From NCBI GenBank assembly GCA_964494655.1, contig CAZBRM010000004.1:1-41427 (forward strand): a DNA stretch of 41,427 bases. Reading direction: 5' to 3'. The translations under genes were made by a program, and so were the position numbers. The notes below the pieces were generated by a model. The model was not told where the DNA came from. It did no database searches and saw only the letters and a list, made by a program, of their open reading frames with translations. This DNA comes from an uncultured Candidatus Saccharibacteria bacterium (GTDB lineage: Bacteria > Patescibacteriota > Minisyncoccia > Portnoybacterales > UBA2143). Within the stretch, counting starts at the first letter, position 1. Every line of letters starts with the position of its first letter. Below are positions 1-18,205 of the stretch, piece by piece.

Positions 1-437
1 ATATTTCTTAATTTATCTTTAAAATTAAAAATTCTTTGAAAAAACCAATTTCCTTGATTTTGATTAATTAATTCAATTTGTGGATAATAGCTAACTAAAT
101 AAATTTTATCTTTAGCTAGATATTCTTGGTAATCAAAATCTTCAAATACAGCTGGTTCTTGTAATTTGCCAGATATCTCTAATTGATCGCCGTAATAATA
201 TTGAGGATATAACTCTGTAGTAATTAATATTTTACTGGAAATTTCTTTTGTTTTAAATTGAAACTTCTGTTGATTGATCCTTTGTTCTGGTTCTTCAATA
301 ATAATTCCCTTAAGATTAACTTCTTGATCATAATACTGGCTATTTTCTTGATTTGAGGAAGAAATAAAAAAAGAGTAAATAAAAACCCCGCCGATAAACA
401 AGAGACAGAGATAAAGAAAGATTTTAGAAGGAGTCAT
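1..437 (-). CDS. comEC: ComEC/Rec2-family competence protein, N-terminal part (gene runs off the window start)
   Basis: Minus-strand ORF from ATG at 437, absent from the ORF track because it is truncated. It reads MTPSKIFLYLCLLFIGGVFIYSFF (TM helix), then ...KILITTELYPQYYYGDQLEISGKLQEPAVFEDFDYQEYLAKDKIY, the usual pattern of the ComEC N-terminal domain. Confidence 0.55.
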   Translation of the reverse strand, partial: MTPSKIFLYLCLLFIGGVFIYSFFISSSNQENSQYYDQEVNLKGIIIEEPEQRINQQKFQFKTKEISSKILITTELYPQYYYGDQLEISGKLQEPAVFEDFDYQEYLAKDKIYLVSYYPQIELINQNQGNWFFQRIFNFKDKLRN

Positions 438-503
438 TAATTATATGATAGCATAAAAAATATTTAGCGTTACATTTACTTATTAAATTCAAGCCCTGCA
501 TAC

Positions 504-532
504 TTGACAAATACTGATAAAAATTCTATATT
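504..532 (+). promoter_or_regulatory. sigma70-type promoter of unit 0
   Basis: TTGACA 504-509, 17-nt spacer, TATATT 527-532. Confidence 0.6.
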
Positions 533-586
533 GTGAATATCCTAAAAAGTAGTTCATTTTATAATAAACATATGATTGGAGGGGGT

Positions 587-955
587 ATGAAAAAATTAAG
601 CATTATGGATATTAGCGTATCGGCTATTGCGTTAACTATCCTTAGCATCTGGATCGTTTTTGAAAAAGTATTCAAATTTTTCAGCAAATGTAGAATGAAG
701 AAAATCACCGAAATTGAAAAACTAGATGATGCTATAGTGTTTAAAAATGGGCATCGTCATTTATTTACATTAGAAAAAGATGGAAAATACGCAATAAATA
801 TTTCCAGTAGTGGTGTAATAGCTTTTTTATACTTCGGATGTTCCTTGGAAAATGATTACCATGTATTTCGCATTTCACATAAAATCTTGAGAAGACTAAA
901 AGAGATTCTAACTCCATCTAATTTTATGTACGAGCAAGGTCTATACCGGCTATAA
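587..955 (+). CDS. unit 0 cargo: hypothetical protein with N-terminal TM anchor (122 aa)
   Basis: ATG at 587 lies after GGAGGGGG (578-585). The track start at 533 lies inside the promoter/leader. MKKLSIMDISVSAIALTILSIWIVF is hydrophobic. Composition is AT-rich like the host. Confidence 0.6.
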   Translation: MKKLSIMDISVSAIALTILSIWIVFEKVFKFFSKCRMKKITEIEKLDDAIVFKNGHRHLFTLEKDGKYAINISSSGVIAFLYFGCSLENDYHVFRISHKILRRLKEILTPSNFMYEQGLYRL

Positions 956-986
956 CAAAACTTAAAATCTCTCCTGAAAAATCCAA

Positions 987-1030
987 AGAGCTGGTTCAAC
1001 GCAATGTTGTTCTGGCTCTTTTCTTTTCCT
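987..1030 (+). terminator. intrinsic terminator of unit 0 (family X)
   Basis: AGAGCTGG...CTGGCTCT stem followed by TTTCTTTTCC. Confidence 0.6.
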
Positions 1031-1232
1031 AAAATCTAATTACCTCTGTAAATTCCATACTATCTAACAGAACAGTCAGCCGAAGCTGGAGCGCCAATCA
1101 TGAGAATATAAAGAATTAAAAGAGAAATGACAAAATAAAAGGCCTGTTGCCGCCAAAGCCCAATCCCTAAAGCTAAAAAGAGCAATATTTGCGTCATAAT
1201 AATCATGTGGATGGAAGATATGGACTAAATCA
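1031..1232. repeat. long inter-cassette repeat, copy 1 (direct repeat of 5507-5710)
   Basis: AAAATCTAATTACCTC...GCGTCATAATAATCATGTGGATGG is nearly identical to 5507-5710 at an offset of 4476 bp. It replaces the short AAATTGTAGCTATAGAGTTATAGG block. Confidence 0.9.
1060..1206 (-). CDS. 48-aa hydrophobic small ORF inside long repeat copy 1
   Basis: MIIMTQILLFLALGIGLWRQQAFYFVISLLILYILMIGAPASADCSVR has two TM-like segments. It is below the track cut-off and has no clear SD or promoter. It is conserved in copy 2 with mostly synonymous changes. Confidence 0.4.
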   Translation of the reverse strand: MIIMTQILLFLALGIGLWRQQAFYFVISLLILYILMIGAPASADCSVR

Positions 1233-1261
1233 TTGACAAATTAAACTGGGTATGATATAAT
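1233..1261 (+). promoter_or_regulatory. consensus promoter of unit 1
   Basis: TTGACA 1233-1238, 17 nt, TATAAT 1256-1261. Confidence 0.7.
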
Positions 1262-1294
1262 ATAAACATTAACAATTAAATAGGAGGAAATGAA

Positions 1295-1618
1295 ATGAAT
1301 ATTTATGTTAGTGAATCGGTTTCTGAGGTAGTAGATGGCTTGAGGGCTCAAGAGATTCCGGGAATCAACGTTGACTATACGTCTGAACCAGAAGATCCCG
1401 AGAATCCTAATGGGTATGTTGTGCTAAAGAATAAACCTTATGATATTATAGCGGTTGTATCAAGTGTGATTCGCTGGAGGAAGGTTCAGCCGGATTGGGG
1501 ACATCCTAAACAAGCGAAAGCTTGCATTCAGATTCTCTCTTTGGCTCGCAAAATGGAGCTTGAAGGGTCCATAAGGGAAAAAGCGAAAAATCTCTTTTTC
1601 TTTATTAAGGAAGATTAA
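1295..1618 (+). CDS. unit 1 cargo: hypothetical acidic protein (107 aa)
   Basis: AGGAGG 1282-1287 lies 7 nt before the ATG. There is no recognisable family. Confidence 0.65.
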   Translation: MNIYVSESVSEVVDGLRAQEIPGINVDYTSEPEDPENPNGYVVLKNKPYDIIAVVSSVIRWRKVQPDWGHPKQAKACIQILSLARKMELEGSIREKAKNLFFFIKED

Positions 1619-1672
1619 GTAAATTCTTTAAGAGCCAGAGCTGGCTGACTGACATTCTATTCAATCATACTT

Positions 1673-1710
1673 AAGCCGCTGGGTCTTCGGACTTAACGGC
1701 TTTTTCTATT
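1673..1710 (+). terminator. intrinsic terminator of unit 1 (family Y, UUCG loop)
   Basis: AAGCCGCTGGGTC-TTCG-GACTTAACGGCTT followed by TTTTCTATTCC. Confidence 0.65.
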
Positions 1711-1712
1711 CC

Positions 1713-1765
1713 AAAATTATAGCTATGGAGTAAGTGGTATATGTATTAGAAATATGTCTAAATCA
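1713..1765. repeat. inter-cassette block, copy A (diverged)
   Basis: AAAATTATAGCTATGGAGTAAGTGGTATATGTATTAGAAATATGTCTAAATCA aligns to the AAATTGTAGCTATAGAGTTATAGG...ATATG..TAAA block. Confidence 0.7.
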
Positions 1766-1794
1766 TTGACAAATTAAACTAGATATGATAATAT
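1766..1794 (+). promoter_or_regulatory. promoter of unit 2
   Basis: TTGACA 1766-1771, 17 nt, TAATAT 1789-1794. The spacer is nearly identical to that of unit 1. Confidence 0.65.
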
Positions 1795-1800
1795 ATAAAT

Positions 1801-1989
1801 ACTTGGAAAGTTACCTAGCGAACTTCCATATTATCAAGCGGACAGCTGGGCCTTCCGAAAGACGTTTCCCGGTCTTCGGAGGGTATAACAGGGATTTTCC
1901 TAAGCGGGAAAAGTGTCCACTGCTTAAGGAGAACGTTAGGACACTACTTCCCCGAGTGAACTTAGAGTAGCTCGGGGATTTTCTTTTCC
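1801..1989 (+). ncRNA. unit 2 cargo: candidate structured ncRNA (~185 nt), family unknown
   Basis: There is no SD and no ATG downstream of the predicted TSS. Stems: TGGAAAGTT/AACTTCCA; CCTTCCGAAAGAC/GTCTTCGGAGGG; TTTTCC/GGAAAA; GTGTCC/GGACAC; and the terminator CCCCGAG/CTCGGGG. Ends are approximate. Confidence 0.5.
1950..1989 (+). terminator. intrinsic terminator of unit 2
   Basis: CCCCGAG-N14-CTCGGGG followed by ATTTTCTTTTCC. Confidence 0.65.
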
Positions 1990-1990
1990 C

Positions 1991-2042
1991 AAATTGTAGC
2001 TATAGAGTTATAGGTATGTGTGTTAGAGATATGAGTTAAACA
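1991..2042. repeat. inter-cassette block, copy B
   Basis: AAATTGTAGCTATAGAGTTATAGGTATGTGTGTTAGAGATATGAGTTAAACA. Confidence 0.85.
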
Positions 2043-2070
2043 TTGACAAAATATATGTATATGGTATGAT
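2043..2070 (+). promoter_or_regulatory. promoter of unit 3
   Basis: TTGACA 2043-2048, 16 nt, TATGAT 2065-2070. Confidence 0.55.
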
Positions 2071-2125
2071 AAGGATACAAATTAAATAGTTCTTAATCTT
2101 TTAACAACTAAATCAGGAGGGAAAA

Positions 2126-3004
2126 ATGGAAAAGGTAAGGGTTATATTACATGTAATGTTTGGAGGTGGCTCAAATGATTCTCATTATGGCGCTAATGGT
2201 TATGTACATCTAGAACTACAGGAAAAAGCGGGGGTCGAAATCGATTTCGTGTCTTTCTCCGGAACGTATCTTCACGGCAACGACCTTGAACGTTTCCTAA
2301 GAGAATGCGAAGATGCTCAGGTTATCGTTCTTGATGCCTGGAACCATCCGTTAAACAAAGATTATGGTAGCCGAGAATGGAACGATCCTCATGAGAGTAT
2401 GGCTAGAATCGCTAGACAAATATCAAGGATAAACCCCTCAGCGCAAATTTTCGCCGATCTTATGGAAAGCTTTAACAAAGTCGCTGTTCACGAAATTGCG
2501 GAACCAATCAAAACATGGACAGATAAAAAAATCGTTGGGGCGATTAAACGAAGCGTATTCAAAAAAGGTCAGCCTACGGTTTTAGTCTTTGACGACACCG
2601 AGAAACATCAGGACGCAGCAGACGAACAGCTTTCCGCCTACAATCTCGTTATCGCTAGAACCTACGATAAAGCTGAAACACTTATCGCCAAAAAAAGATT
2701 CGATTACGTCCTACTCGATCTCCTGGTTCCGGCCAGCGATAAAACTCTGGGGTCAAAAGGAAAAAAGTATGTCGGACAAGAAATGCCTCTCACGCCGCTA
2801 CTTGCTTTCCTGGCTCTTAAACAGGGAATTAAGAAGATTGGCATTCTTACCGACGCAAACCATCATGATCATCCAGCTTCTGCTGCTGTCGACATTTTCG
2901 GAAGCCCATTCGTCATAGGCAATGCCAAGATACAGATTTCTAACCGTGGCGTTACTTCAGAAGGAGTCAAAGACTGGAAAGGTTTGATGGATCAACTCAA
3001 TTAA
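2126..3004 (+). CDS. unit 3 cargo: hypothetical 292-aa protein; the C-terminal half has a CheY-like receiver-fold pattern
   Basis: AGGAGGG 2115-2121 lies before the ATG. TVLVFDD...FDYVLLDLLVP...IGILTD resembles receiver beta1/beta3/beta4 signatures. The N-terminal half also looks flavodoxin-like (RVILHVMFGGG, AQVIVLDAW). The fold call is tentative. Confidence 0.7.
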   Translation: MEKVRVILHVMFGGGSNDSHYGANGYVHLELQEKAGVEIDFVSFSGTYLHGNDLERFLRECEDAQVIVLDAWNHPLNKDYGSREWNDPHESMARIARQISRINPSAQIFADLMESFNKVAVHEIAEPIKTWTDKKIVGAIKRSVFKKGQPTVLVFDDTEKHQDAADEQLSAYNLVIARTYDKAETLIAKKRFDYVLLDLLVPASDKTLGSKGKKYVGQEMPLTPLLAFLALKQGIKKIGILTDANHHDHPASAAVDIFGSPFVIGNAKIQISNRGVTSEGVKDWKGLMDQLN

Positions 3005-3023
3005 GTTCTATAATCTCAACTAA

Positions 3024-3061
3024 AAGAGCCGGAATAAACAATCGTTCTGGCTTTTTTTCTT
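3024..3061 (+). terminator. intrinsic terminator of unit 3 (family X)
   Basis: AAGAGCCGG...CTGGCTTTT stem running into TTTTTTTCTTTCC. Confidence 0.6.
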
Positions 3062-3066
3062 TCCCT

Positions 3067-3118
3067 AAAACCGTGCTATAGACATAGTGGCATGTGGATG
3101 AAAGATATGTCTAAATCC
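3067..3118. repeat. inter-cassette block, copy C (variant)
   Basis: AAAACCGTGCTATAGACATAGTGGCATGTGGATGAAAGATATGTCTAAATCC. It is closest to copy G. Confidence 0.8.
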
Positions 3119-3146
3119 TTGACAAATTATATCAGTATGTTATAAT
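3119..3146 (+). promoter_or_regulatory. promoter of unit 4
   Basis: TTGACA 3119-3124, 16 nt, TATAAT 3141-3146. Confidence 0.7.
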
Positions 3147-3183
3147 GTAAACAATATTAACAATTAAATAAGAGGAGAAGACA

Positions 3184-3525
3184 ATGGCATCAATACCAAA
3201 AGAGGACATTCCAAAGACAGCCGAAGCAATCAGTAAAGCAATTCCAGAAAAAAATCGTTACGACAAGCCAATTTGGCAAGGAGTTCTCAAGCTCATTGAG
3301 GAAAGTGAATTCGGCAAGAAGAATGCGCAATCTGATATCGTATCTCCATTGCCCGAGGGCAGAAGCGAGACGGAAGAGATGATGTCTGGCAGTTTTGATG
3401 GGGTGCAAATAGAAATGATGAGATTCTGCAATTCTGTTCTTGGCAGTTGTGGATCCGTTTCGATGGAGCCATACACGGCAGGATTGGGCACACGTTCAAT
3501 GACTCTTACGTTCGAAGCCAATTAA
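3184..3525 (+). CDS. unit 4 cargo: hypothetical protein (113 aa)
   Basis: AGAGGAG lies before the ATG. The leader ACAATATTAACAATTAAATAAGAGGAG is homologous to those of units 1 and 8. No family is recognised. Confidence 0.65.
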   Translation: MASIPKEDIPKTAEAISKAIPEKNRYDKPIWQGVLKLIEESEFGKKNAQSDIVSPLPEGRSETEEMMSGSFDGVQIEMMRFCNSVLGSCGSVSMEPYTAGLGTRSMTLTFEAN

Positions 3526-3527
3526 TC

Positions 3528-3593
3528 AGAGGCCAGTTAACCTCTCTCGCAAAAAGAAGAGGTCAAATAAATATACTGGCCTCTTTTCTTTTG
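3528..3593 (+). terminator. intrinsic terminator of unit 4 (family X, long)
   Basis: AGAGGCCAG (3528-3536) pairs with CTGGCCTCT (3576-3584), with an inner ACCTCT/AGAGGT stem, then TTTTCTTTTG. Confidence 0.6.
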
Positions 3594-3595
3594 TT

Positions 3596-3647
3596 AAATT
3601 GTAGCTATAGAGTTATAGGCATGTGGATGAGGAGTATGATTTAAAGA
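3596..3647. repeat. inter-cassette block, copy D
   Basis: AAATTGTAGCTATAGAGTTATAGGCATGTGGATGAGGAGTATGATTTAAAGA. Confidence 0.85.
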
Positions 3648-3677
3648 TTGACAGATTATAGATTGGTGTGGTATAAC
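3648..3677 (+). promoter_or_regulatory. promoter of unit 5
   Basis: TTGACA 3648-3653, 18 nt, TATAAC 3672-3677. Confidence 0.55.
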
Positions 3678-3683
3678 CATGAT

Positions 3684-3703
3684 ATCGTAAAACGGTTTAC
3701 GAT
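3684..3703 (+). promoter_or_regulatory. perfect hairpin in the unusually long leader of unit 5
   Basis: ATCGTAAA-ACGG-TTTACGAT forms an 8-bp stem. A second stem, ATCTG/CAGAT, lies just downstream. Confidence 0.45.
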
Positions 3704-3765
3704 CTACCAGTTATCTGATAGTCCAGATATTTAAAAACTTCAAATCTTACTAAAGGAGGGTAAAA

Positions 3766-4137
3766 ATGACTAAAAAAGCTAACGAGGAGAAGGCCAAACT
3801 TAAGGAATTGTGGATATTGTTATTTGAAGAACCACAAAGCTTAAGTAATGAGCAAATCACACGTTTACTTGAAGCGGAAAAAGAGCTTCAAGATGTCGTA
3901 TACTATGTCTATCATCGGTTTCCAGAAATGATGAAGGAAGTCCAAAGGTATTGGGCGAGAAAAAACGAGCTGTCTCAATTGCCTATTGAGGAATTACAAG
4001 AAAAGATGCAAAAAATATCGAATAGAAGAGCATCTATTCTGAAAAGCGTACCTGATGAAGAACTCAGTGATTCATTTTTTGAATCTTCACTTCTCGATTC
4101 TGATGAAAATATCCTCTATGAGCTTTTGAAAGAATGA
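3766..4137 (+). CDS. unit 5 cargo: hypothetical acidic, probably helical protein (123 aa)
   Basis: AAAGGAGGG lies before the ATG. The protein is rich in E/K/L. No family is recognised. Confidence 0.65.
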   Translation: MTKKANEEKAKLKELWILLFEEPQSLSNEQITRLLEAEKELQDVVYYVYHRFPEMMKEVQRYWARKNELSQLPIEELQEKMQKISNRRASILKSVPDEELSDSFFESSLLDSDENILYELLKE

Positions 4138-4163
4138 GACACAAGAGTCTAACTCTTAATATT

Positions 4164-4200
4164 AAGCCACCAGTCTTCGGACTTGGTGGCTTTTTTCTTT
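4164..4200 (+). terminator. intrinsic terminator of unit 5 (family Y, UUCG loop)
   Basis: AAGCCACCAGTC-TTCG-GACTTGGTGGCTT followed by TTTTCTTT. Confidence 0.7.
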
Positions 4201-4203
4201 TCT

Positions 4204-4256
4204 AAATTGTAGCTATAGAGTTATAGGCATGTGGATGAGGGATATGGGTTATATCC
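4204..4256. repeat. inter-cassette block, copy E
   Basis: AAATTGTAGCTATAGAGTTATAGGCATGTGGATGAGGGATATGGGTTATATCC. Confidence 0.85.
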
Positions 4257-4285
4257 TTGACGGAATGTGTGTATATGTGTATAAT
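4257..4285 (+). promoter_or_regulatory. promoter of unit 6
   Basis: TTGACG 4257-4262, 17 nt, TATAAT 4280-4285. Confidence 0.65.
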
Positions 4286-4332
4286 GATGGTATAATTAAA
4301 TAGAATTCAAATCTGAAAAAAGGAGGGTAAAA

Positions 4333-4584
4333 ATGGAAATCATATTTAACGAAGAAGAAGCAGTGTCTTGGGGTGATCCAGATGATCCTAGGAATACCCC
4401 AGAAAAGCTGGTTGAACGTAGAAGAGCTGGTCTCATTAAGCTGGGAGAATTCGTGGGAGCCGAAAGGATAGAATTTGTCCCGGAACATAAAAGGGATATT
4501 TATATCCTTACAAAAGGCGGAAAGAAATTATCGATTATCGCCAGAGGAAACGGGTTTGACGGAGGATGGCTTGAAGTAGAATAA
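4333..4584 (+). CDS. unit 6 cargo: hypothetical protein (83 aa)
   Basis: AAGGAGGG lies before the ATG. The leader ...CAAATCT...AAAGGAGGGTAAAAATG is homologous to that of unit 5. Confidence 0.65.
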   Translation: MEIIFNEEEAVSWGDPDDPRNTPEKLVERRRAGLIKLGEFVGAERIEFVPEHKRDIYILTKGGKKLSIIARGNGFDGGWLEVE

Positions 4585-4618
4585 TCTGATTTTCTTCAAC
4601 TGCCTATCTAATTAATTA

Positions 4619-4658
4619 AAGGGTCAGTTCGGTAAACGTTCTGGCTCTTTTCTATTCC
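4619..4658 (+). terminator. intrinsic terminator of unit 6 (family X)
   Basis: GGGTCAG...CTGGCTC stem (with G-U pairs) followed by TTTTCTATTCC. Confidence 0.55.
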
Positions 4659-4660
4659 CT

Positions 4661-4713
4661 AAATTGTAGCTATAGACATATAGGTATATGGATAAGGAAT
4701 ATGAATTAAACTC
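4661..4713. repeat. inter-cassette block, copy F
   Basis: AAATTGTAGCTATAGACATATAGGTATATGGATAAGGAATATGAATTAAACTC. Confidence 0.85.
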
Positions 4714-4742
4714 TTGACAAATCTATTCACATATAATAATAT
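4714..4742 (+). promoter_or_regulatory. promoter of unit 7
   Basis: TTGACA 4714-4719, 17 nt, TAATAT 4737-4742. Confidence 0.6.
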
Positions 4743-4748
4743 TATAAT

Positions 4749-4857
4749 AATTGGATGTAAATTTGTGCCACCGGTCAAAGAACGTATAAGGCACGGAGCA
4801 CTTACAACATCCATACAATAATATAAAGGGTCAAGGCAAAGCTTTGACCTTTTTTTT
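4749..4857 (+). ncRNA. unit 7 cargo: candidate small structured RNA (~110 nt), family unknown
   Basis: There is no SD and no ORF. A long irregular hairpin is formed by GGATGT...GTGCC-loop-GGCAC...ACATCC, followed by the terminator. Ends are approximate. Confidence 0.5.
4829..4857 (+). terminator. intrinsic terminator of unit 7
   Basis: GGTCAAGGC-AAA-GCTTTGACC followed by a run of 8 T. Confidence 0.75.
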
Positions 4858-4908
4858 ATTCCTATGTATTAGTCTATAATAAATAACCTGCTTTTTTCTT
4901 TTCCTCCC
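4858..4908 (+). other. collapsed or empty unit remnant
   Basis: ATTCC-TATGTATTAG-TCTATAATAAATAA-CCTGCTTTTTTCTTTTCC contains fragments of block copy A, a TATAAT and half a terminator, with no cargo between them. Confidence 0.35.
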
Positions 4909-4961
4909 AAAACCATGCTATAGACATAGTGGTATGTGGATGAGGAATATGGGCTTAATCA
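4909..4961. repeat. inter-cassette block, copy G (variant)
   Basis: AAAACCATGCTATAGACATAGTGGTATGTGGATGAGGAATATGGGCTTAATCA. Confidence 0.8.
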
Positions 4962-4990
4962 TTGACTTTTAATATTTTGTGTTGTATGGT
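4962..4990 (+). promoter_or_regulatory. promoter of unit 8
   Basis: TTGACT 4962-4967, 17 nt, TATGGT 4985-4990. Confidence 0.5.
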
Positions 4991-5026
4991 AGAGACAACA
5001 TTAACAATTGAATAAGGAGATAAGAA

Positions 5027-5446
5027 ATGGATAAGGAAATGAAAGAAAGGATTAAGGAGAATCTTAGTTTGATCGGCAAAAGAGAAAAAACTGGAAATTG
5101 GAGCAAACTCATCAATGTCCACGATAATGTTTGGGGACATGCTGATAACATTAGGGGCAACATCTTAAACATCTGGGACAACATCTCAAACATTAGGGGC
5201 GACGTCTCAAACATCAGGGGCAACGTCTCAAGAATCAGTGGCGACGTCACAAACATCTGGGGCGACGTCTCAAACATCAGGGGCGACATCTCAGATATCA
5301 GTGGCTACTTCTCAAGAATCAGTGGCGACGTCACAAACATCTGGGGCGACGTCTCAGATATCAGTGGCTACGTCTCAAGAATCAGTGGCGACGTCACAAA
5401 CATCAGTGGCGACGTCTCAGATATTATCAAAGTCCTCGAAGATTAG
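5027..5446 (+). CDS. unit 8 cargo: heptad-repeat protein (139 aa)
   Basis: AAGGAG lies before the ATG. Residues 37-134 are 14 tandem heptads with consensus G-D-V-S-N-I-(R/W/S). Confidence 0.7.
   Translation: MDKEMKERIKENLSLIGKREKTGNWSKLINVHDNVWGHADNIRGNILNIWDNISNIRGDVSNIRGNVSRISGDVTNIWGDVSNIRGDISDISGYFSRISGDVTNIWGDVSDISGYVSRISGDVTNISGDVSDIIKVLED
5135..5428 (+). repeat. 14 x 21-bp tandem repeat inside the unit 8 CDS, with a 63-bp super-period
   Basis: GGCGACGTCTCAAACATCAGG-type units. Units 8-10 and 11-13 are nearly identical triplets. Other frames on both strands stay open across it. Confidence 0.9.
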
Positions 5447-5468
5447 GGATTAGAAGGCAAACTACAAG

Positions 5469-5500
5469 AGGCTGACTCAACAAGAGTTGGCCTTTTTTCT
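5469..5500 (+). terminator. intrinsic terminator of unit 8 (family X)
   Basis: AGGCTGACTC-AACAA-GAGTTGGCCT followed by TTTTTCTATTC. It is close to the unit 10 terminator. Confidence 0.65.
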
Positions 5501-5506
5501 ATTCTC

Positions 5507-5710
5507 AAAATCTAATTACCTCCTCAAATTCCATACTATCCCACAGAACAGTCAGCCGAAGCTGGAGCGCCAATCATGAGGATATAAAGAATTAAAAGAG
5601 AAATGACAAAATAAAAGGCCTGTTGCCGCCAAAGCCCAATCCCTAAAGCTAAAAAGAGCAATATTTGCGTCATAATAATCATGTGAATGGTAGAAATATG
5701 TCTAAATCCA
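5507..5710. repeat. long inter-cassette repeat, copy 2 (direct repeat of 1031-1232)
   Basis: Nearly identical to copy 1 across the ORF48 segment and more diverged at both ends. Confidence 0.9.
5536..5682 (-). CDS. 48-aa hydrophobic small ORF, copy 2
   Basis: Same ORF as 1060-1206. There are three nucleotide differences: two synonymous (Ile, Val) and one R-to-G change at the last codon. Confidence 0.4.
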   Translation of the reverse strand: MIIMTQILLFLALGIGLWRQQAFYFVISLLILYILMIGAPASADCSVG

Positions 5711-5745
5711 TTGACATTAATTATTTTTTACTACATGCTATTATT
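5711..5745 (+). promoter_or_regulatory. promoter region of unit 9 (TTGACA kept, probable extended -10)
   Basis: TTGACA is at 5711-5716, but there is no -10 at 16-18 nt. TGCTATTAT at 5737-5745 fits an extended -10 (TGnTATAAT). Confidence 0.4.
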
Positions 5746-5781
5746 AAAAGTAGTTCTTAATATATAAAGGAGGAGGATGCA

Positions 5782-6033
5782 ATGGAACAAGAAATTTTTG
5801 AAATTATAAAAAATTCTCAAATATTACCAGAAATGCTGATTTTATTTGGCACTACAATCCTTATAACTACTTCTGCATGGACACTCTTATTTCCTATTGG
5901 AAAAGGAAAATATCTTGTTTCGTCATGGTATTACTTTTGGAGAATTATGCTCTTTGGAATGTTTGCTTCTTTTCTTTTGGTACTTACTGTTATAGTTGCT
6001 GCTTATATACAATGTTCTTTTAAGAGCATATAG
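5782..6033 (+). CDS. unit 9 cargo: small membrane protein, 2-3 TM (83 aa)
   Basis: AAAGGAGGAGG lies before the ATG. Hydrophobic stretches include LILFGTTILITTSAWTLLF and IMLFGMFASFLLVLTVIVAAYI. Composition is AT-rich like the host. No terminator precedes the next gene. Confidence 0.6.
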   Translation: MEQEIFEIIKNSQILPEMLILFGTTILITTSAWTLLFPIGKGKYLVSSWYYFWRIMLFGMFASFLLVLTVIVAAYIQCSFKSI

Positions 6034-6085
6034 CTTGACACGAAATATCTTTTCTAACTATTAGACAAAAAGGAGGGTTATAAAA

Positions 6086-6379
6086 ATGGAGATTAGAGTT
6101 GTTTTAGACTTACCGGGACTGACAATGAAGAAAATTTTTGATGTGCCCAAGGAATTAGTTCCTAGAAAGGACGATGGGGTTAAATTTTGGGAAGAAAAAA
6201 GAAAAGACGCCGTTATGTTGGGTTATGCAACTGCTTTTTCGGTAACACGTGACCTAACTCAGGAAGATAAGCCTCCGATAGAGGTTTTTCTTAAGCCGGA
6301 GAGTGATGATTTAACCAAAGCGTGTCTGGAAGAATTTGAGAGGGTACTATCAAAACAAGGCTGGCAAATCCAGCGTTAA
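6086..6379 (+). CDS. unit 10 cargo: hypothetical protein (97 aa)
   Basis: AAAGGAGGG lies before the ATG. A weak TTGACA is at 6035-6040. It may be co-transcribed with unit 9. Confidence 0.6.
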   Translation: MEIRVVLDLPGLTMKKIFDVPKELVPRKDDGVKFWEEKRKDAVMLGYATAFSVTRDLTQEDKPPIEVFLKPESDDLTKACLEEFERVLSKQGWQIQR

Positions 6380-6400
6380 ATCTTTTTGCCGAGTCAACGA

Positions 6401-6436
6401 AGAGGCCGACTCAACGCAGTTGGCCTCTTTTTATTT
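6401..6436 (+). terminator. intrinsic terminator of unit 10 (family X)
   Basis: AGAGGCCGAC-TCAACGCA-GTTGGCCTCT forms a 10-bp stem, followed by TTTTATTTCC. Confidence 0.7.
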
Positions 6437-6439
6437 CCC

Positions 6440-6469
6440 AAATTGTAGCTATAGAGTTATAGGTATGTG
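6440..6469. repeat. terminal half-copy of the inter-cassette block (copy H)
   Basis: AAATTGTAGCTATAGAGTTATAGGTATGTG is identical to copy B up to ATGTG. After that the sequence is unique (CATTCCCGAGACGG). Confidence 0.85.
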
Positions 6470-6598
6470 CATTCCCGAGACGGCAGTGATATGCCTTGTT
6501 CCAGTAATATTTAATTTTTCTTTTAAAACCATTCCAAAACCATGCCTTAGAAAGATGAACAGGCGTGATAGTGCGTCCTCTTGCTCAAAACCAGGCAT
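6449..6598 (-). CDS. 49-codon ORF translationally coupled to cobO, ending inside repeat copy H
   Basis: The ATG overlaps the cobO stop (TAATG). The product is MPGFEQEDALSRLFIFLRHGFGMVLKEKLNITGTRHITAVSGMHIPITL. It is below the track cut-off and its coding status is unproven. Confidence 0.35.
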   Translation of the reverse strand: MPGFEQEDALSRLFIFLRHGFGMVLKEKLNITGTRHITAVSGMHIPITL

Positions 6599-7104
6599 TA
6601 GAACTCGATTCCTTTTCTTGGTTTTATTGCTTTAGTGTAATAATGTTTAATTTCTTTCATTTCTGTAACTAAATCTGCTGCTTGAATAAGTTTTTTAGAA
6701 GCGTTACGGCCAGTTAGGACGAGCTCTGTTTTTGACGAAGTTTCTTTTATTAATTCCAGAATATCTTTTACTTTAATTAAGTCAAAGTAATTTACCATAT
6801 TCATTTCATCCAAAATTATTAAGTCGTATTTTTTACTTTTAATTGCTTTTTGGGCAAAATTAAAACCTTGACTTGCAAGGTTAAAATCTTTTTTTAATAA
6901 TTTACCTTTACTGACAAATCCTTTTCTGCCAAAGATTTTTACTTCAAAATTCTTTATTTTTTTAATCGCCTCTATTTCTGAACTCTTACCGTCTTTCAAA
7001 AACTGAATTAATAAAACTTTTTTACCAGCGCCTACAGATCGTAAACCAAGACCCAAAGCTGCAGTTGTTTTGCCTTTTGCATCACCTGTATAAATTTGAA
7101 GCAT
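6598..7104 (-). CDS. cobO: cob(I)yrinic acid a,c-diamide / cob(I)alamin adenosyltransferase (CobA/CobO/BtuR family)
   Basis: P-loop YTGDAKGKTTAALG, and ILDEMNMV...LVLTGR typical of the family. Confidence 0.8.
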   Translation of the reverse strand: MLQIYTGDAKGKTTAALGLGLRSVGAGKKVLLIQFLKDGKSSEIEAIKKIKNFEVKIFGRKGFVSKGKLLKKDFNLASQGFNFAQKAIKSKKYDLIILDEMNMVNYFDLIKVKDILELIKETSSKTELVLTGRNASKKLIQAADLVTEMKEIKHYYTKAIKPRKGIEF

Positions 7105-7116
7105 GTTAATTATAAA

Positions 7117-10100
7117 TTATACATTACAAGTCGGACAGCTTCCAGGAGGCAAATCTGGAATATCAGGCGAAGGATCACGCAATTCAGGAGAAACATCTTT
7201 TTCTTTAACCATTTTCTTATCTGCTTTTGGCAAAGATCCTTGCTCTTTACCTTTAATATTTAAAACTTGCTGTTTTCTGCTTTCGTTTCTGTAAAAAGTT
7301 ACACCCTTGCATCCTAAATCATAAGACATAATATATGCTTTTCTAATATCGTCTTCTGAAGCGGAATAAGGAAAATTAATTGTCTTACTTGTGGCATTAT
7401 CAACATATTTTTGAAAAGCTGCCTGCATTTTTATATGATCCTCCGGCTTAATATCTAAAGCAGTAACAAAAATCTTTTTTATATCAGTTGGAATTTCTTT
7501 AATATCCTGAATACTTCCTTTTCTTGAAATTTCTTCAATAAGTTTTTTAGACCAAAAACCTCGTTCTTTGGCTATTTCTTCAAAAATAGAATTAACTTCA
7601 ACTAATTCTTGATCGCCTAAAACATGTTTTCTAGTATAAGCGACAGCAAAAAGCGGTTCAATAGCTGATGAGGCGCCAGCAATAATACCTATTGTTCCTG
7701 TTGGAGCAATTGTAGTTATAGTCGCATTCCTAACTTTAGGCATATTTTTTTCATTATAAATACTATCTTTTAAATTAGGAAAAACTTCTCTTTGCTCAGC
7801 TAATCCAACTGATGCTTTTCTGCCTTCTTCTTGAATAAATTTCATCACACTTTTACCAACCATTAGCGCTTTTCTGGAATTATACGGAATCCTTAACCTG
7901 ATAAGCATATCTGTAAAACCCATTACGCCTAAACCTATTTTCCTATTCCCTCTAGTTAATTTTTCTATTTCAGGCAGAGGATAACGATTAACTTCAATAA
8001 CATTATCTAAAAAATGAACTGCGTTAATAGTTGTTTGCTTAAGCTTGTCCCAATCAATTTCCCAGATTTTTGACCGAGCAGTTTTTTTCTTAATTATTTT
8101 GCTTAAATTGATACTACCTAAGTTACAGCTCTCGAAAGGAAGCAATGGCTGCTCCCCGCATTGTCGACTGATGATTCCACTCATTAAAGGTTTTTTAGAT
8201 AATTTAGTTTTGCCATTAGGTTTAGTGATATAAGCAACAGTATGAAATTCATCTACGGTGATATTATAAACATCTTCATTGCCATAAAATTTTATAGATT
8301 TAACTTTATGATTATGCATTATCAACTCTTCTCTGAAAGCATTATAGCCACCAAAAGTACTCCTTAAATCTCCAGAATAACCAAAATTATTTACATATTT
8401 CTTAAACTCTAAATAATTAGGCATATTTCTTTTTTCTTTGATAAATTTGATCCCTAATTTATAAAGTTCTCTCCTCAATTTATCTCTGTTTTTCTTTTTT
8501 GCATCAATAACACTATCTGTATTTCTAATACTATTAACATAGCTAGCTCTACAGGATCTTGAACAAAAACTCTTATTTATATTTTCTTTATATATTATTT
8601 CCTTACTACATTTTAAGCACGCCGACTTAATATAAGAATAGATAGTTTTTGATTTACTTATTTTTTCTTTAATTTCAGGATGTTTCTTATATAGTTCAAT
8701 AATTCTTAAACTTTGATCTTTTCTATTTTTAGGATTTTTAAAATACAAACTAGTTAAATCGCCAATTAATTTTTTTGTTGTCTCTCTATGCTTTCGACCA
8801 AACATGCCATTCCCCTTGCCAGATTTTAATTTACTCATCTTTTCTCTATAAATATCTTTTTCTTGATCTGATAATTTTTGCCACCATTTTCCTTTCATTA
8901 TATTTTGTTCTCCAGTTTGATGTAAACTATCATGAGCGCTTTGGCTCATAACTTCTAAATTCTTAATATCATTATCCAGCCCATTAAAATTTTTATGATG
9001 AACTACTTCGTTTGGATATTTCTTAATCTTTCTGCCAAGTAAAAGCTCCGCAATCATTCTATGCTCGGATTTAGCTCTTTTACCATTATTTTGTGTTATC
9101 CCCCAATAAACACAATTTTTCCTAGTCGCTGTATATTGAAACTTATTAAAAGGCATCAAGCTTACACCTGGTTTTAAATCTTTCAATTTAACATCATTAT
9201 TTTTTCTATCTTTAAATTTATGATCTTCAGTAGCAATCAGATAACTATTATCATCAAAGACAACTTTCCAAACAGGAACATTAGTTCTTGTTTTCCTTGG
9301 ATTTCGTCCCATTCGAATTTGCACTTTTCCATTACCATAACAATATACTGGAATATCTTTTTTTTCTTTAACCAATTGTTTTATTGAAACACAATTTCTA
9401 CCATCAGCCACACCTACCAAGGTATCTCCAACTACGCATGGATTAGTGCTTTCTATCTTACCTAATTTTGGAGTTGGATTGTCTCTATTAATTCTGTCAA
9501 TGAAAATAACTCCTGGCTCTCCATTTTTCCACGCATAATCAACAATTAAATCAAAAACCATATTAGCGTCTAATTGGCCTGAAATTTGACCGTCTCGAGG
9601 ATTTATTAAATTATATTTCTTCTTCTTTTTAACCGCCTCCATAAATTCATCAGTCAAAGCAACGGAAATATTAAAATTATTTAAAACCCCTTCTTCTGAT
9701 TTAGCTGTAATAAATTCCAATATATCGGGATGATCAACATTTAAAATTCCCATATTAGCTCCACGTCTTTTGCCGCCCTGTTTTATTACATCAGTAGCCG
9801 CATTAAAAACACTCATAAAAGACAATGGACCAGAAGAAGCTCCTTGAGTTGATTTAATATTATCTCCCCTTGGGCGCAAATGAGAGAAATTAAAACCTGT
9901 ACCGCCACCACTTTTGTGAACCAAAGCGGTATTTTTAATTGCTTCAAAAATTTCCTCCATTGAATCACCTACTGGGAGAACAAAACAACCACTAAGTTGC
10001 TGGAGTACGCCTCCAGCATTCATTAATGTTGGAGAATTAGGTAAAAATTCCAAAGATGCCATCATTTTATAGAATTTTTCGCCAATATCAAAAAGTTCAT

Positions 10101-10599
10101 CATCTGAAATTGAAGGATTAAAAAACGACTCAGCTGAAGCAATATTAGCGGCTACCCGCTGAAATAATTGCTGAGGCGTTTCAATTATTTTTCCTTGTTC
10201 ATCTTTTTTTAAATATCTTGATTCAAGAACTTTTAAGGCATTAGGCATGAGCTTTGTTTTTACATTACGGCTTAAAAGCCACCACTTAGCATCTCTAAGC
10301 TCTTTTCTTTTTTGACGATAAAGACCGTATAACTCCGCAATATCTTTTTGGCCTTCTTTAGCTAATGTTTCAATAACTACATCCTGAAGTTGTTCTACTT
10401 TTGGGATTTCTTCTTTAAAACGCTTATTTAGAATTTCAACTACACTATTAGAAATTTTTTGGGCTAATTTTTTATCCTCTTTTCCTCCCGCCTGAAGAGC
10501 TTTTAAAATAGCTTCTGTAATTTTAACTTGATTAAAATTAACGATTCTACCATCTCTTTTTTTAACACTCTGTATATATTTTACATTCTTTTTAGACAT
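7117..10599 (-). CDS. nrdJ: adenosylcobalamin-dependent (class II) ribonucleotide reductase with N-terminal ATP-cone, interrupted by an intein
   Basis: ATP-cone KKRDGRIVNFNQVKITEAI. RNR core motifs are present. The finger loop ESTNP-[intein]-CGEQPLLPFESCNLGS is split. The C-terminus carries a CPTC pair. Confidence 0.9.
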   Translation of the reverse strand: MSKKNVKYIQSVKKRDGRIVNFNQVKITEAILKALQAGGKEDKKLAQKISNSVVEILNKRFKEEIPKVEQLQDVVIETLAKEGQKDIAELYGLYRQKRKELRDAKWWLLSRNVKTKLMPNALKVLESRYLKKDEQGKIIETPQQLFQRVAANIASAESFFNPSISDDELFDIGEKFYKMMASLEFLPNSPTLMNAGGVLQQLSGCFVLPVGDSMEEIFEAIKNTALVHKSGGGTGFNFSHLRPRGDNIKSTQGASSGPLSFMSVFNAATDVIKQGGKRRGANMGILNVDHPDILEFITAKSEEGVLNNFNISVALTDEFMEAVKKKKKYNLINPRDGQISGQLDANMVFDLIVDYAWKNGEPGVIFIDRINRDNPTPKLGKIESTNPCVVGDTLVGVADGRNCVSIKQLVKEKKDIPVYCYGNGKVQIRMGRNPRKTRTNVPVWKVVFDDNSYLIATEDHKFKDRKNNDVKLKDLKPGVSLMPFNKFQYTATRKNCVYWGITQNNGKRAKSEHRMIAELLLGRKIKKYPNEVVHHKNFNGLDNDIKNLEVMSQSAHDSLHQTGEQNIMKGKWWQKLSDQEKDIYREKMSKLKSGKGNGMFGRKHRETTKKLIGDLTSLYFKNPKNRKDQSLRIIELYKKHPEIKEKISKSKTIYSYIKSACLKCSKEIIYKENINKSFCSRSCRASYVNSIRNTDSVIDAKKKNRDKLRRELYKLGIKFIKEKRNMPNYLEFKKYVNNFGYSGDLRSTFGGYNAFREELIMHNHKVKSIKFYGNEDVYNITVDEFHTVAYITKPNGKTKLSKKPLMSGIISRQCGEQPLLPFESCNLGSINLSKIIKKKTARSKIWEIDWDKLKQTTINAVHFLDNVIEVNRYPLPEIEKLTRGNRKIGLGVMGFTDMLIRLRIPYNSRKALMVGKSVMKFIQEEGRKASVGLAEQREVFPNLKDSIYNEKNMPKVRNATITTIAPTGTIGIIAGASSAIEPLFAVAYTRKHVLGDQELVEVNSIFEEIAKERGFWSKKLIEEISRKGSIQDIKEIPTDIKKIFVTALDIKPEDHIKMQAAFQKYVDNATSKTINFPYSASEDDIRKAYIMSYDLGCKGVTFYRNESRKQQVLNIKGKEQGSLPKADKKMVKEKDVSPELRDPSPDIPDLPPGSCPTCNV
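8161..9438 (-). mobile_element. 426-aa intein with an HNH homing-endonuclease module, inserted before the catalytic Cys of NrdJ (residues 388-813)
   Basis: Block A CVVGDTLV; block B ATEDH; HNH VVHHKNFNGLDNDIKNLEVMSQSAHDSLH; NUMOD3-like NGMFGRKHRETTKKLI; Cys4 CLKC...CSRSC; block F VYNITVDEFHTVAY. It ends ...SGIISRQ followed by extein Cys. Confidence 0.85.
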
Positions 10600-16534: not shown

Positions 16535-17044
16535 TTAAACATATTTATCTGCAACACTGGACGCGGCATAAGAATCTGGCTTGATTTTTGCCTGAAAGCC
16601 ATTACCGCGGACCATGCCGACTACTTCCTTGATCATTTCTCTGGTTGGACCATTCTGTCCAACATCAATATGAATTTGAAAATCATAATTAAGTTCATGA
16701 CCTGATTTTAGTAATATCTGCAATTGGGCAAGAATATCTTGGGCTGTTTTCAAAGAAAGAGTTACTTCTTCGTAAATTCTATCTCTTAATGTATTATAAT
16801 CCTTACCTCCATTAGTTTTTCTCCAAAAATAGCGTCCGCCCTTGCCAATGCGATAAACAATAATAGCCGTTACAAAATCAGCTTTTTTCCCGCCATTACC
16901 ATTAGAATCAGTTCCTACAATCAAACGGTACTTTGAATGAGAATCATCATTAATATAATCAGAAACTTCCTTAGCTACTTTTACCAGCTTCATTTTTCCC
17001 ATTGTCGGGCTTTGAAATATTTCTTTGTCTTTTTTTAATTTCAT
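16535..17044 (-). CDS. YkuK/DUF458 family (RNase H-like) protein
   Basis: YRLIVGTDSN...FVTAIIVYRIGKGGRYFW resembles B. subtilis YkuK. Confidence 0.65.
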   Translation of the reverse strand: MKLKKDKEIFQSPTMGKMKLVKVAKEVSDYINDDSHSKYRLIVGTDSNGNGGKKADFVTAIIVYRIGKGGRYFWRKTNGGKDYNTLRDRIYEEVTLSLKTAQDILAQLQILLKSGHELNYDFQIHIDVGQNGPTREMIKEVVGMVRGNGFQAKIKPDSYAASSVADKYV

Positions 17045-17050
17045 AATAAT

Positions 17051-18205
17051 CTATTTGAGAAAATAAATAATCTCGTAAATGATTCCAATGATAAAGAATA
17101 ATATCAGAAAATAAACAAAAAAGCTAGGAATAGATAAATTGTAAGCCGGCTCCAAATCGCCTTTTGTTTTTGCTTTTAGATAAATAAGAATAATGATAAT
17201 AACATCAATACCAAGCATAACTCCGCCGGTTAAAACAATCACTGTAATAAAATTATCAAATCCCACAATAAAAAGAATTAAAGGAGCAAAACAGGTAATA
17301 AGCCAGGCTAAATTTTTCTTCAATCTCAAATCATACCAAAGAATCTTTTTAAAAGTCAAACTAATAGTCAAAAAAGACGTGAAAACAGTTAATATGCCAA
17401 AAAGTAACGCCAGCGCAATAATTCCGTTTCCTAAAAAAATATTCAATCCAGTAATTGCATCATCAGAAGTATTTTGTCCTGTAATTCCTAAAATTAGAAA
17501 TATGAAAAAGAGATATGTTATGGCCGCAATTGAAATTGCCAATAAAATTAGTTTTTTTAGTTTTTTTGGATTCTTTGAGAGCATTTCTTTCACTTCTGGG
17601 ATTAAAGTAGTTCCTGAAAGAGAAAAAAGAATTGCGCCATAAGGCAAAAATAAGTATTTTATATCGAAATTAAGTAAATTTTCTACATCAATTATCCAAA
17701 AGCTTTTATAAAAAATAAATCCTAGAATAAAAAAGAATAAAATTAATAAAAAAGATTCTACCTTAGCAATGCTGCCAATCCCAAAATAGGTCAAAATAGC
17801 TCCTGCTAAAAAAAATATTAAAACATAAATAAAATCACTACCGCCAAAACATGATTGAAGGATAGATTCTAAAAATCTTCCTCCGATAATTAAATAAGCC
17901 AAAATAGCTCCTGTTAATCCTAAACTACTTGAAATAAAAGCAATTATTTTTGCGCGCTTACCTAAATATTTTTCGGCATAGCCAGGCAATCGATGAAGAC
18001 CTTTTGTTCTTAAAGCTATCTCTCCGTAAAAAAGACCTATTAAAGAAGTTACTATGCCCAATACGAGAAAATAAAAAAGCATTGTAAAAATGCCTACTTT
18101 AGCTGTAATATACGGTAAACTAAAAAGGCCCACTCCTATGATAGTGCCTGTTAAAATAGCTAATGCTTGAAAAAAGTCACTATTTTTTGACAATTTACTA
18201 CTCAT
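17051..18205 (-). CDS. amino acid permease-like polytopic membrane protein
   Basis: About 11 predicted TM helices, with a layout like the Trp/Tyr-permease family. Substrate is unknown. Confidence 0.5.
   Translation of the reverse strand: MSSKLSKNSDFFQALAILTGTIIGVGLFSLPYITAKVGIFTMLFYFLVLGIVTSLIGLFYGEIALRTKGLHRLPGYAEKYLGKRAKIIAFISSSLGLTGAILAYLIIGGRFLESILQSCFGGSDFIYVLIFFLAGAILTYFGIGSIAKVESFLLILFFFILGFIFYKSFWIIDVENLLNFDIKYLFLPYGAILFSLSGTTLIPEVKEMLSKNPKKLKKLILLAISIAAITYLFFIFLILGITGQNTSDDAITGLNIFLGNGIIALALLFGILTVFTSFLTISLTFKKILWYDLRLKKNLAWLITCFAPLILFIVGFDNFITVIVLTGGVMLGIDVIIIILIYLKAKTKGDLEPAYNLSIPSFFVYFLILFFIIGIIYEIIYFLK

Follow-up and report, generated by a model that had tools for sequence, protein, structure and literature searches.

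A chromosomal array of small expression cassettes beside comEC in a Patescibacteria contig and its probable relation to attachment sites of large serine recombinase elements

The cassette array and its probable attachment sites

The window analysed here is a 41,427-nt stretch of contig CAZBRM010000004.1 from an uncultured Patescibacteria bacterium, which carries an array of small expression cassettes in its first 6.5 kb, next to the gene comEC, and consists of housekeeping genes outside of this array. The array (504-6469) comprises ten site-delimited units with all open reading frames (ORFs) on the plus strand, and its GC content is 0.383 versus 0.312 for the remaining window. Near-consensus sigma-70 promoters are located on the plus strand at 504, 1233, 1766, 2043, 3119, 4257, 4714 and 4962, the last being weaker than the others, and strong promoter-like sites of this strand number ten in the 6.5 kb of the array versus 14 in the other 34.9 kb. 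Every array ORF is preceded by an AGGAGG-type Shine-Dalgarno (SD) sequence at a distance of 6-9 nt, and an automatic scan detected a stable hairpin (-9.5 to -18.6 kcal/mol) followed by the T-tract TTTTCTTTTCC behind seven of the nine ORFs. For the ORFs at 4333-4584 and 6086-6379 the scan misplaced the T-tract; the terminator of the latter is a 13-bp stem at 6399-6430. A block of about 50-77 nt is present eight times in the array, where none is expected by chance, and was not found by a pattern search of the window between 6.5 and 41.4 kb. The array is a real, non-chance feature. The original prediction for this region, made from the sequence without database searches, had described a plus-strand organisation of promoter, SD, cargo and terminator and an eightfold block of about 50 nt, both of which were borne out, as was the absence of a recombinase gene from the window; this absence extends to the roughly 6 kb known to its left. 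Of the nine near-consensus promoters proposed, eight were recovered, and the one at 3648 (TATAAC, extended -10) was picked up only under our own criteria; similarly, the array of cassettes as such stands, with a count of ten units, the last containing two ORFs, in place of about eleven.

The gene diverging from the array start is comEC. Its 5' end (amino acids 1-145) occupies window positions 1-437 on the minus strand, as assigned by tblastn, by alignment to positions 1719-3011 of L006, the left extension of the contig, and by the Pfam domains DUF4131 and Competence. In L006 the gene is intact and encodes 430 aa with both domains. ComEC in these Parcubacteria is spread over two overlapping ORFs, of which one carries DUF4131 and Competence (430 aa) and the other encodes Lactamase_B on its own (289 aa; L006 875-1744). 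Copies of parts of comEC are also present within and at the end of the array, in two features that the original prediction overlooked. One is a 206-nt repeat, here termed D4, at 1016-1221 and 5492-5697 (94% identity to each other), in which a '48-aa ORF' on the minus strand duplicates comEC codons 191-236; L006 2303-2438 is 95% identical to window 1077-1212 and 5553-5688. An interpretation of this ORF as a small toxin or membrane gene was therefore dropped. The other is the right end of the array (6470-6598), which encodes the ComEC residues just ahead of codons 191-236, with 98% identity over 62 nt between L006 2431-2492 and window 6465-6526. The 3'-side and 5'-side copies overlap by 8 nt in L006.

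All breaks in comEC meet at one TG dinucleotide, and a TG is found at the centre of ten out of ten sites in the window, reading AATCATA-TG-CATTCC in resident comEC, AATCATG-TG-GATGG at the D4 junctions, TAGGYATG-TG-GATGAGG in the inter-cassette blocks and TAGGTATG-TG-CATTCC at the array's right end. The resident site, TCATAATAATCATA-TG-CATTCCCGA, lies about 140 nt to the left of window position 1. Among 33 junctions from several metagenomes, the left half (L-half) CTTTTTCTTTCC-AAAYTGTA-GCTATAGAGTTATAGGYATG-TG is almost invariant, and the information content falls abruptly right after the TG. With the arms oriented outward from the TG, 50 P arms read CATRCCTAT-AACTC-TATAGCTACAAT and four P' arms read CATRCCNNN-NNNNC-TATAGCNACAAT. 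In all of these the TATAGCNACAAT-type motif begins 14 nt from the TG, as opposed to 9 nt in the B' arms of comEC, CATNCCNGA-(T/G/A)AT(A/C)GCNACRAT, so that its position is +15 in the former and +10, 5 bp nearer to the centre, in the latter. The 3'-side arm of comEC reads TATGATTAT-TATGACNCAAAT, and the right halves (R-halves) of the junctions are closest to this arm, e.g. TAAGATTAT-TATGAGTTAATT; in 34 R-halves, nine variable nucleotides are followed by TATGRNYTAAT in about 26, which corresponds to the B-type spacing. According to a published rule for large serine recombinases (LSRs), the motif of the zinc-ribbon domain (ZD) is located 5 bp further inward in attB than in attP (PMC3783163). The sites described here display the dyad-symmetric attP and attB, the 2-bp crossover and this 5-bp shift of the ZD motif.

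Because P and B half-sites differ by 5 bp in motif spacing, the inter-cassette block is, as far as its sequence can tell, a P/B hybrid, attR-type site, in which the terminator T-tract is followed by a P-type half-site, the crossover TG and a B-type half-site fused to a consensus promoter. By the same measure, the two D4 repeats are predicted to be B/B, attB-like sites composed of the comEC 3'-side arm, TG and a B-type R-half, and the right end of the window's array a true attR composed of P, TG and the comEC B' arm, behind which the comEC 5' part is present a second time in decaying form. It is thus fairly probable that the region is a chromosomal, moron-like cassette array bounded by attachment (att) sites of LSR elements of Parcubacteria that target comEC. 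The original prediction had regarded the shells around the cargo as mere promoter and terminator architecture matching no known system; instead, their conserved core appears to be a recombination site, and the latter statement was too strong, the block being a hybrid attR-type site of these elements.

The ten units and their cargo

Unit 1 (504-1029) starts without an att half-site on its left and abuts the upstream region of comEC. It is composed of a promoter at 504-532 (TTGACA-17-TATATT), an SD, an ORF for 122 aa with an N-terminal transmembrane segment (587-955, GC 0.31), a hairpin and a T-tract at 1019, and leads into the first D4 repeat, D4a (1016-1221), with its attB-like junction: T-tract, a diverged comEC stretch termed X, the comEC fragment (1077-1212, codons 191-236 on the minus strand, 95% identical to the 3'-side arm of resident comEC), TG at 1208-1209 and a B-type R-half. 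All following cassettes are on the plus strand. Cassette 2 (1210-1743) begins with this R-half (1210-1232) and continues with a promoter at 1233-1261 (12/12), an ORF for 107 aa (1295-1618), a homologue of which is the first cassette of the related contig L002, a terminator, a P-type arm and TG at 1742-1743. Cassette 3 (1744-2020) contains no protein-coding cargo; its promoter (1766-1794) is followed by a structured predicted transcript of about 180 nt, a terminator, a P arm and TG at 2019-2020. Cassette 4 (2021-3096; promoter 2043-2070) encodes 292 aa (2126-3004) and ends on TG at 3095-3096, and cassette 5 (3097-3625; promoter 3119-3146, 12/12) encodes 113 aa (3184-3525), followed by a terminator, a P arm and TG at 3624-3625. 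In cassette 6 (3626-4233), the promoter at 3648 (TTGACA-17-TATAAC with TG extension) is separated by a leader of about 90 nt from an ORF for 123 aa (3766-4137), and a terminator, a P arm and TG at 4232-4233 complete the unit. Cassette 7 (4234-4690; promoter 4257-4285) encodes 83 aa (4333-4584) and has its TG at 4689-4690; cassette 8 (4691-4938), again RNA-only, comprises a promoter (4714-4742), a hairpin RNA, a terminator (4825-4853), a P arm and TG at 4937-4938. Cassette 9 (4939-5685), with a weak promoter at 4962-4990 and an ORF for 139 aa (5027-5446), has as its right end the second repeat, D4b (5492-5697), with the comEC fragment at 5553-5688 and an attB-like junction with TG at 5684-5685. 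Finally, cassette 10 (5686-6469) starts with an R-half, carries ORFs for an 83-aa membrane protein (5782-6033) and a 97-aa protein (6086-6379), and ends with the terminator at 6399-6430, a P arm at 6440-6467 and TG at 6468-6469. Beyond it, on the minus strand, lie the B' arm of the terminal attR and the remnant of the second comEC 5' part (6470-6598; 6465-6526 being 98% identical to resident comEC), which covers codons ~170-190 before the next ~70 nt are decayed and the stop codon of cobO is reached at 6598.

In line with the original statement, none of the nine cargo proteins resembles another by BLASTP at E<0.01, and among 40 cargo proteins from related arrays only four related pairs were found. 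Searches against Pfam, PHROG, PADLOC and NCBIfam with ten, then 40, of these proteins returned no informative family and no recombinase. With 735 relatives among 1.84 billion representatives, the 292-aa cargo is one member of a large, uncharacterised family. Its AlphaFold model (pLDDT 94) has two alpha/beta domains, of which the C-terminal one is predicted to be receiver (CheY)-like, with conserved DD...D...T...K residues of an acidic pocket; this domain of about 140 aa is also found on its own. The 139-aa cargo consists of thirteen 21-nt (7-aa) tandem repeats (window 5087-5466; ..ISGDVSN/IRGDVTN..), and its weak coiled-coil or tail-fibre-like matches are probably compositional. The 83-aa cargo of cassette 7 has relatives in one array, L031, and in L033, a block-free contig of more distant Patescibacteria, where the homologue is found among small genes (440-1100, 4060-4400) with promoters of the TTGACAAA-N17-TGATATAAT style and intrinsic terminators. 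Since these signals occur there without att blocks, expression shells may predate, or occur separately from, the recombination sites. The two RNA-only units (1800-1990 and 4748-4860), which had likewise been predicted, have a promoter and a terminator and are devoid of an SD-preceded ORF, and their predicted transcripts fold better than shuffled sequences (z -3.0 and -4.1). An Rfam search of window 1-7000 at a permissive threshold gave matches at chance level only, and neither unit has a homologue in the other array loci. The cargo, small and mostly uncharacterised proteins plus two RNAs, would be expressed constitutively from the promoter of each cassette.

Outside the array, the gene for a ribonucleotide reductase (7117-10599, minus strand, 1160 aa) is broken by an insert of about 400 aa with an HNH_3 match, which sits between two Ribonuc_red_lgC segments, is conserved in L002 and looks like an intein.

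Related elements and arrays

One match (L022) proceeded from L-half-TG into comEC sequence that is undecayed over 43 codons or more. The complete contig (L035, 17,179 nt) contains a 16.9-kb element inserted in comEC, with the left junction ..CTCATAATGATCATA-TG-CATGCCACTTACTCTATAGCGACAATTT on the 3' side of the gene and the right junction terminator-CTTTTTCTATTCC-TCAAACTGTAGCTATAGAGTTATAGGTATA-TG-CATTCCTGATATAGCTACAAT.. on its 5' side. The ends of the element are inverted repeats (P' and P), the right one being the L-half of the window including the T-tract. Among the products of the element are a 521-aa LSR (L035 2709-4271), in which the domains Resolvase, Recombinase and Zn_ribbon_recom each exceed the Pfam cut-off and the N-terminal domain matches the TP901-1 integrase, as well as restriction-modification methylases and a Schlafen/AlbA_2 protein. 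The contig stops about 140 nt into comEC on both sides (1-140 and 17040-17179), and as this flank length equals the assembler k-mer (k141), occupied and empty comEC alleles are suggested to coexist in the sample, the element being active or polymorphic. Related Parcubacteria elements (L037-L039 and L045-48) share with L035 a protein of 163-165 aa and encode a Prim-Pol primase, HNH and methylases; they do not contain the L-half.

Homologous LSRs adjoin the 3' part of comEC, annotated there as a separate 'Competence' ORF of about 240 aa, in L040, L042, L043 and L045-48, and the Bα-TG-P' junction could be read in four of four cases (L040, L042, L043 and L045). In L043, an element of about 9 kb divides comEC into ORFs of 196 and 206 aa, and a cassette array is additionally present upstream of the comEC start, as in the window. 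L035 and L043 both have the arrangement comEC 3' part-TG-P' ... P-TG-comEC 5' part, that is, attL and attR flanking an integrated element in a split target. The attB of the LSR lies at comEC codons S-G-M-H|M (S187 to M191), which places it some 30 residues inside the Competence domain. The crossover is directly followed by an ATG, and the P' arm of the element retains '..RVSGMH' in frame, so that split ComEC might still be produced. Some integrated elements look locked in: the attR of L043 (reverse complement) has lost its P arm through a deletion of about 25 nt, and the block at ~20221 of L040 (reverse complement) has a canonical P arm and TA in place of TG at its right junction, which mismatches its own attL. 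Elements joined directly to arrays were found with P-TG-R-half in L019 and P-TA-R-half in L040. In L028, one block and one cassette are directly followed by a full attP-like palindrome, P-TG-P'; the ORF to the right of P' has no homologue among the elements compared, and the reading of L028 as a free element is based on the P-TG-P' site and low GC only. Two further termini, at L001 7078-7130 (in an array by argS) and at ~19220 of L043 (reverse complement, in the array upstream of comEC), read P-TG/TA-C(A/G)T(G/A)CCATT(G/A)AT.. and could not be confidently assigned to the B' arm of comEC or to a secondary attB. The contigs L045-48 come from the sample series of the window itself; they abut the 3' part of comEC and carry a tyrosine integrase (PF00589) besides the LSR. 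As they have no nucleotide similarity to the window's comEC or L-half, they are no demonstration that the window's species carries the recombinase. No relatives of the LSR were found in IMG/VR, and nothing seen in the associated elements was a phage structural gene.

The block pattern identifies arrays in two Patescibacteria/Parcubacteria metagenome-assembled genomes and in about 17 metagenome contigs, and has no match among the viral contigs of IMG/VR; matches in L004, L005, L014, L024 and L030 were rejected as chance. In the window, L002/L012/L020, L003, L013, L027 and L043, the arrays begin just upstream of, and divergent from, an intact comEC start, and others adjoin argS, lemA or tsaD. 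Array content is variable among strains and species, the breakpoints lying at the blocks. L009 (same population, with 100% identity over 2 kb) corresponds to window 1-2020 joined directly to 6428-6593, with units 4-10 missing and an identical stretch of 42 nt at the breakpoint. L002, from a related species with the same synteny of comEC, cobO and the ribonucleotide reductase gene, has only two cassettes, a homologue of the cargo of unit 2 and a novel one; unit 1 and D4 are absent, and the first cassette is fused within the promoter (TTGACAAA), not at the TG. Three different last cassettes precede one identical flank in L016, L026 and L029. In L013, a second, decayed comEC start (with a start codon) lies together with a B' fragment beyond a single cassette, and in L015, L017 and L023 the D4-type junctions are shortened and have lost the TG (type-2 junctions). 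The comparisons that the original prediction had proposed, of strains for cassette gain and loss and of related genomes for the block, thus came out in its favour: content differs between relatives, the cargos do not appear to be paralogues, and the block is confined to arrays and does not serve as a generic promoter element of ordinary genes in the other 35 kb of the window. With unrelated cargos, an array-confined block and variable content, a platform of conserved shells with swappable cargo, as opposed to tandem duplication, is upheld.

Origin of the array and relation to known systems

With respect to cassette movement, we favour alternate-attR excision and re-integration combined with homologous recombination. 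Arrays would ride at the P end of LSR elements, and an LSR together with a directionality factor could pair attL with an internal attR-like block instead of the terminal attR. The element would then depart with the proximal cassettes, giving the arrangement of L028, and the distal cassettes would remain, flanked by a regenerated attB-like site of the D4 type and the terminal attR, which is the structure of window 5553-6526. The next element may integrate at the regenerated site, and repeated cycles would add and shuffle cassettes; the P-TG-R-half and P-TA-R-half junctions mentioned above are those expected from integration into an attB-like comEC arm-TG-R-half at the edge of an array. Excision via a block upstream of the comEC start, as arranged in L043, would package the 5' part of comEC, and integration followed by normal excision in a new host might yield an intact comEC, an array, P-TG-B' and a superfluous copy of the comEC 5' part that is decaying. 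This would explain the intact comEC beside a decayed duplicate that is seen in L013 and in the window. Further deletions and swaps could be contributed by homologous recombination between the near-identical shells of 42-77 nt. Homologous recombination clearly also acts on the arrays, given the 42-nt breakpoint identity in L009, the promoter fusion in L002 and the TG-less junctions of L015, L017 and L023.

Several points weigh against an array built on LSR att sites. Neither the 41-kb window nor the ~6 kb known on its left side contains an LSR gene, and no LSR or directionality factor was detected in the window's genome; the nearest LSR elements belong to other species or contigs, and the one from the same sample series has diverged att sequences. 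Canonical LSRs leave hybrid sites unrecombined unless a directionality factor is present; a factor of this kind was not identified, nor were circular intermediates observed. The deletion in L009 joins two attR-type sites, and because of the 42 identical nucleotides at the breakpoint homologous recombination fits better than LSR chemistry. The conservation of TATG (+10) in the R-halves could stem from a function upstream of the promoter and not from recombinase binding, promoters and terminators are sequence-based predictions, and the model does not account for where each cassette, or segment X within the 206-nt repeat, came from.

A more far-reaching version, in which the blocks are functional attR-type sites and D4 a functional attB, so that an LSR with a directionality factor routinely captures, drops and reorders cassettes as a serine-recombinase analogue of an integron, is conceivable, and we put it forward tentatively. 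If true, this would be a dedicated platform for gene capture and expression in bacteria of the Candidate Phyla Radiation (CPR), which might transduce the comEC 5' part and thereby restore the interrupted gene. At the other extreme, the blocks might be fossil scars of one or a few ancient LSR insertions that are no longer recombinase substrates, and the array might have grown and changed later through RecA-dependent events alone (exchange, duplication or deletion between the conserved shells), perhaps following the uptake of DNA. Such a history would agree with a window devoid of an LSR, with the identity at the L009 breakpoint and the L002 junction within the promoter, with the persistence of the type-2 junctions despite the lost TG centre, and with leaders and terminators that form families common to several cassettes. 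We nevertheless regard it as unlikely: P arms are nearly invariant, about 26 of 34 R-halves hold TATG at the exact B-type spacing although the inner nine nucleotides vary, and all centres are TG, which suggests continued selection on the geometry of the sites, and there are elements freshly joined to arrays at P-TG-R-half or, in L040, P-TA-R-half.

The recurrence of the block might also mean that it is a shared operator or UP element of one transcription factor and that the small accessory genes are co-regulated. A palindrome, CTATA-GAGT-TATAG, is indeed centred near -72 of each promoter, and in both the block and the promoter spacer ATRTG-like motifs return at intervals that are roughly helical. 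The two halves are, however, separable, by which this explanation is largely refuted and becomes very improbable: a promoter-free L-half is joined to comEC sequence at array ends (window 6448, L013, L035), D4 has an R-half with promoter in the absence of an L-half, LSR elements have the L-half as their terminal inverted repeat, and the other 35 kb of the window are free of the block.

Integrons, to which the array had been likened, share with it a single orientation, unrelated small cargo of mostly unknown function, a recombination site at every cassette border and strain variation, and a gene diverges from the array start where intI would sit. The comparison breaks down for each of the defining features. 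The gene in the intI position is comEC, and no tyrosine recombinase was found at any array. The block is asymmetric with a nearly invariant left half, lacks the R''/L''/L'/R' structure, the attC hairpin and a GTTRRRY core, and is a P/B hybrid LSR site; elements sharing it encode serine recombinases. There is no Pc promoter shared by the cassettes, and promoter, SD and terminator come with each of them. The block also matches dif arms poorly (~5-7/11), and both a dif/Xer assignment and a 5-6-nt tyrosine-recombinase core (CATRTG), for which inverted core-type sites were sought, were dropped after the LSR elements had been found. An integron-like or Xer/dif-module system with the block as attC or dif-like site is accordingly highly implausible. 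The same holds, at a comparably minimal probability, for HUH/Y1 (IS200/IS605-type) single-strand mobilisation with the L-half palindrome as right-end hairpin, cleavage after ATGTG and insertion 3' of ATRTG: strand polarity is uniform, the palindrome is subterminal (7 nt from the boundary) and in some cassettes a hairpin may form ~19 nt in from the left end, but this 'hairpin' overlaps the -35/-10 elements, the variants show no consistent compensatory changes that would preserve the palindrome, no TnpA was found among the 40 cargos or their neighbours, and the same sequence is one arm of the dyad-symmetric site that flanks LSR elements, with the 5-bp P/B shift.

Returning to a cassette array on LSR att sites, close parallels exist to prophages and islands in competence genes. 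Listeria A118 is a serine-integrase prophage in comK. Streptococcal serine-recombinase elements (Phi1207.3/Tn1207.1) integrate in comEC at a GA dinucleotide (PMC4260502), and it is well established that mobile elements disrupt competence genes (PMC4774983). Common to these and to the elements described here are a recombinase with Resolvase, Recombinase and Zn-ribbon domains, a 2-bp crossover in a competence gene, dyad-symmetric attP and attB with a ZD motif shifted by 5 bp, and hybrid attL/attR flanks. In contrast, half-sites in the window are repeated eight to ten times and border single-gene units of 0.25-1.1 kb, comEC is intact next to an array without recombinase, and the host belongs to the CPR. 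In the staphylococcal cassette chromosome (SCC), units of 3-60 kb with multiple genes and without uniform promoter/terminator shells are moved by the Ccr LSRs, with attB in rlmH. As in composite SCC islands, an LSR-dependent site in a conserved housekeeping gene is combined with tandem units between direct att repeats, many of them without a recombinase of their own and presumed to be mobilised in trans, and with strain-variable content. In the window, ten units bordered by TG-centred sites lie by comEC, and none of the ten encodes a recombinase; they differ from SCC by being single-gene units with standardised expression signals. The resemblance to phage morons, noted originally, is apt. By its predicted signals, each unit combines a sigma-70 promoter with a single gene and an intrinsic terminator, the composition differs from that of the host (GC 0.38 versus 0.31), and the units adjoin the attachment site of an integrative element, an association seen with an element present in related contigs only. 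Morons are, however, usually scattered singly among phage genes and have no att half-sites, while the units of the array are in tandem with a site at every border. The region is therefore best read as a moron-like cassette array on LSR att sites that is closest, by analogy, to composite SCC islands. A literature search on integrons and cassettes in Patescibacteria returned nothing relevant, and what is new here is the combination of SCC-like and moron-like traits at single-gene scale, with standardised shells, in a CPR host.

In practical terms, the elements provide an LSR family with clearly defined natural attP, attB, attL and attR sites, and the compact promoter/SD/terminator shells may serve as portable expression units in Patescibacteria. 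The arrays also hold a pool of about 40 unknown small proteins and two RNAs that are predicted to be strongly expressed under selection. With M191 as an ATG after the crossover and SGMH in frame, it is a testable idea that ComEC tolerates splitting. These organisms are thought to rely on ComEC for the uptake of DNA and nucleotides, and with comEC as target the conflict between mobile elements and competence would be extended to a new phylum. Likewise, our analysis indicates that cassette arrays can rest on LSR att sites instead of attC, in ultra-small CPR bacteria whose mobile elements are poorly known.

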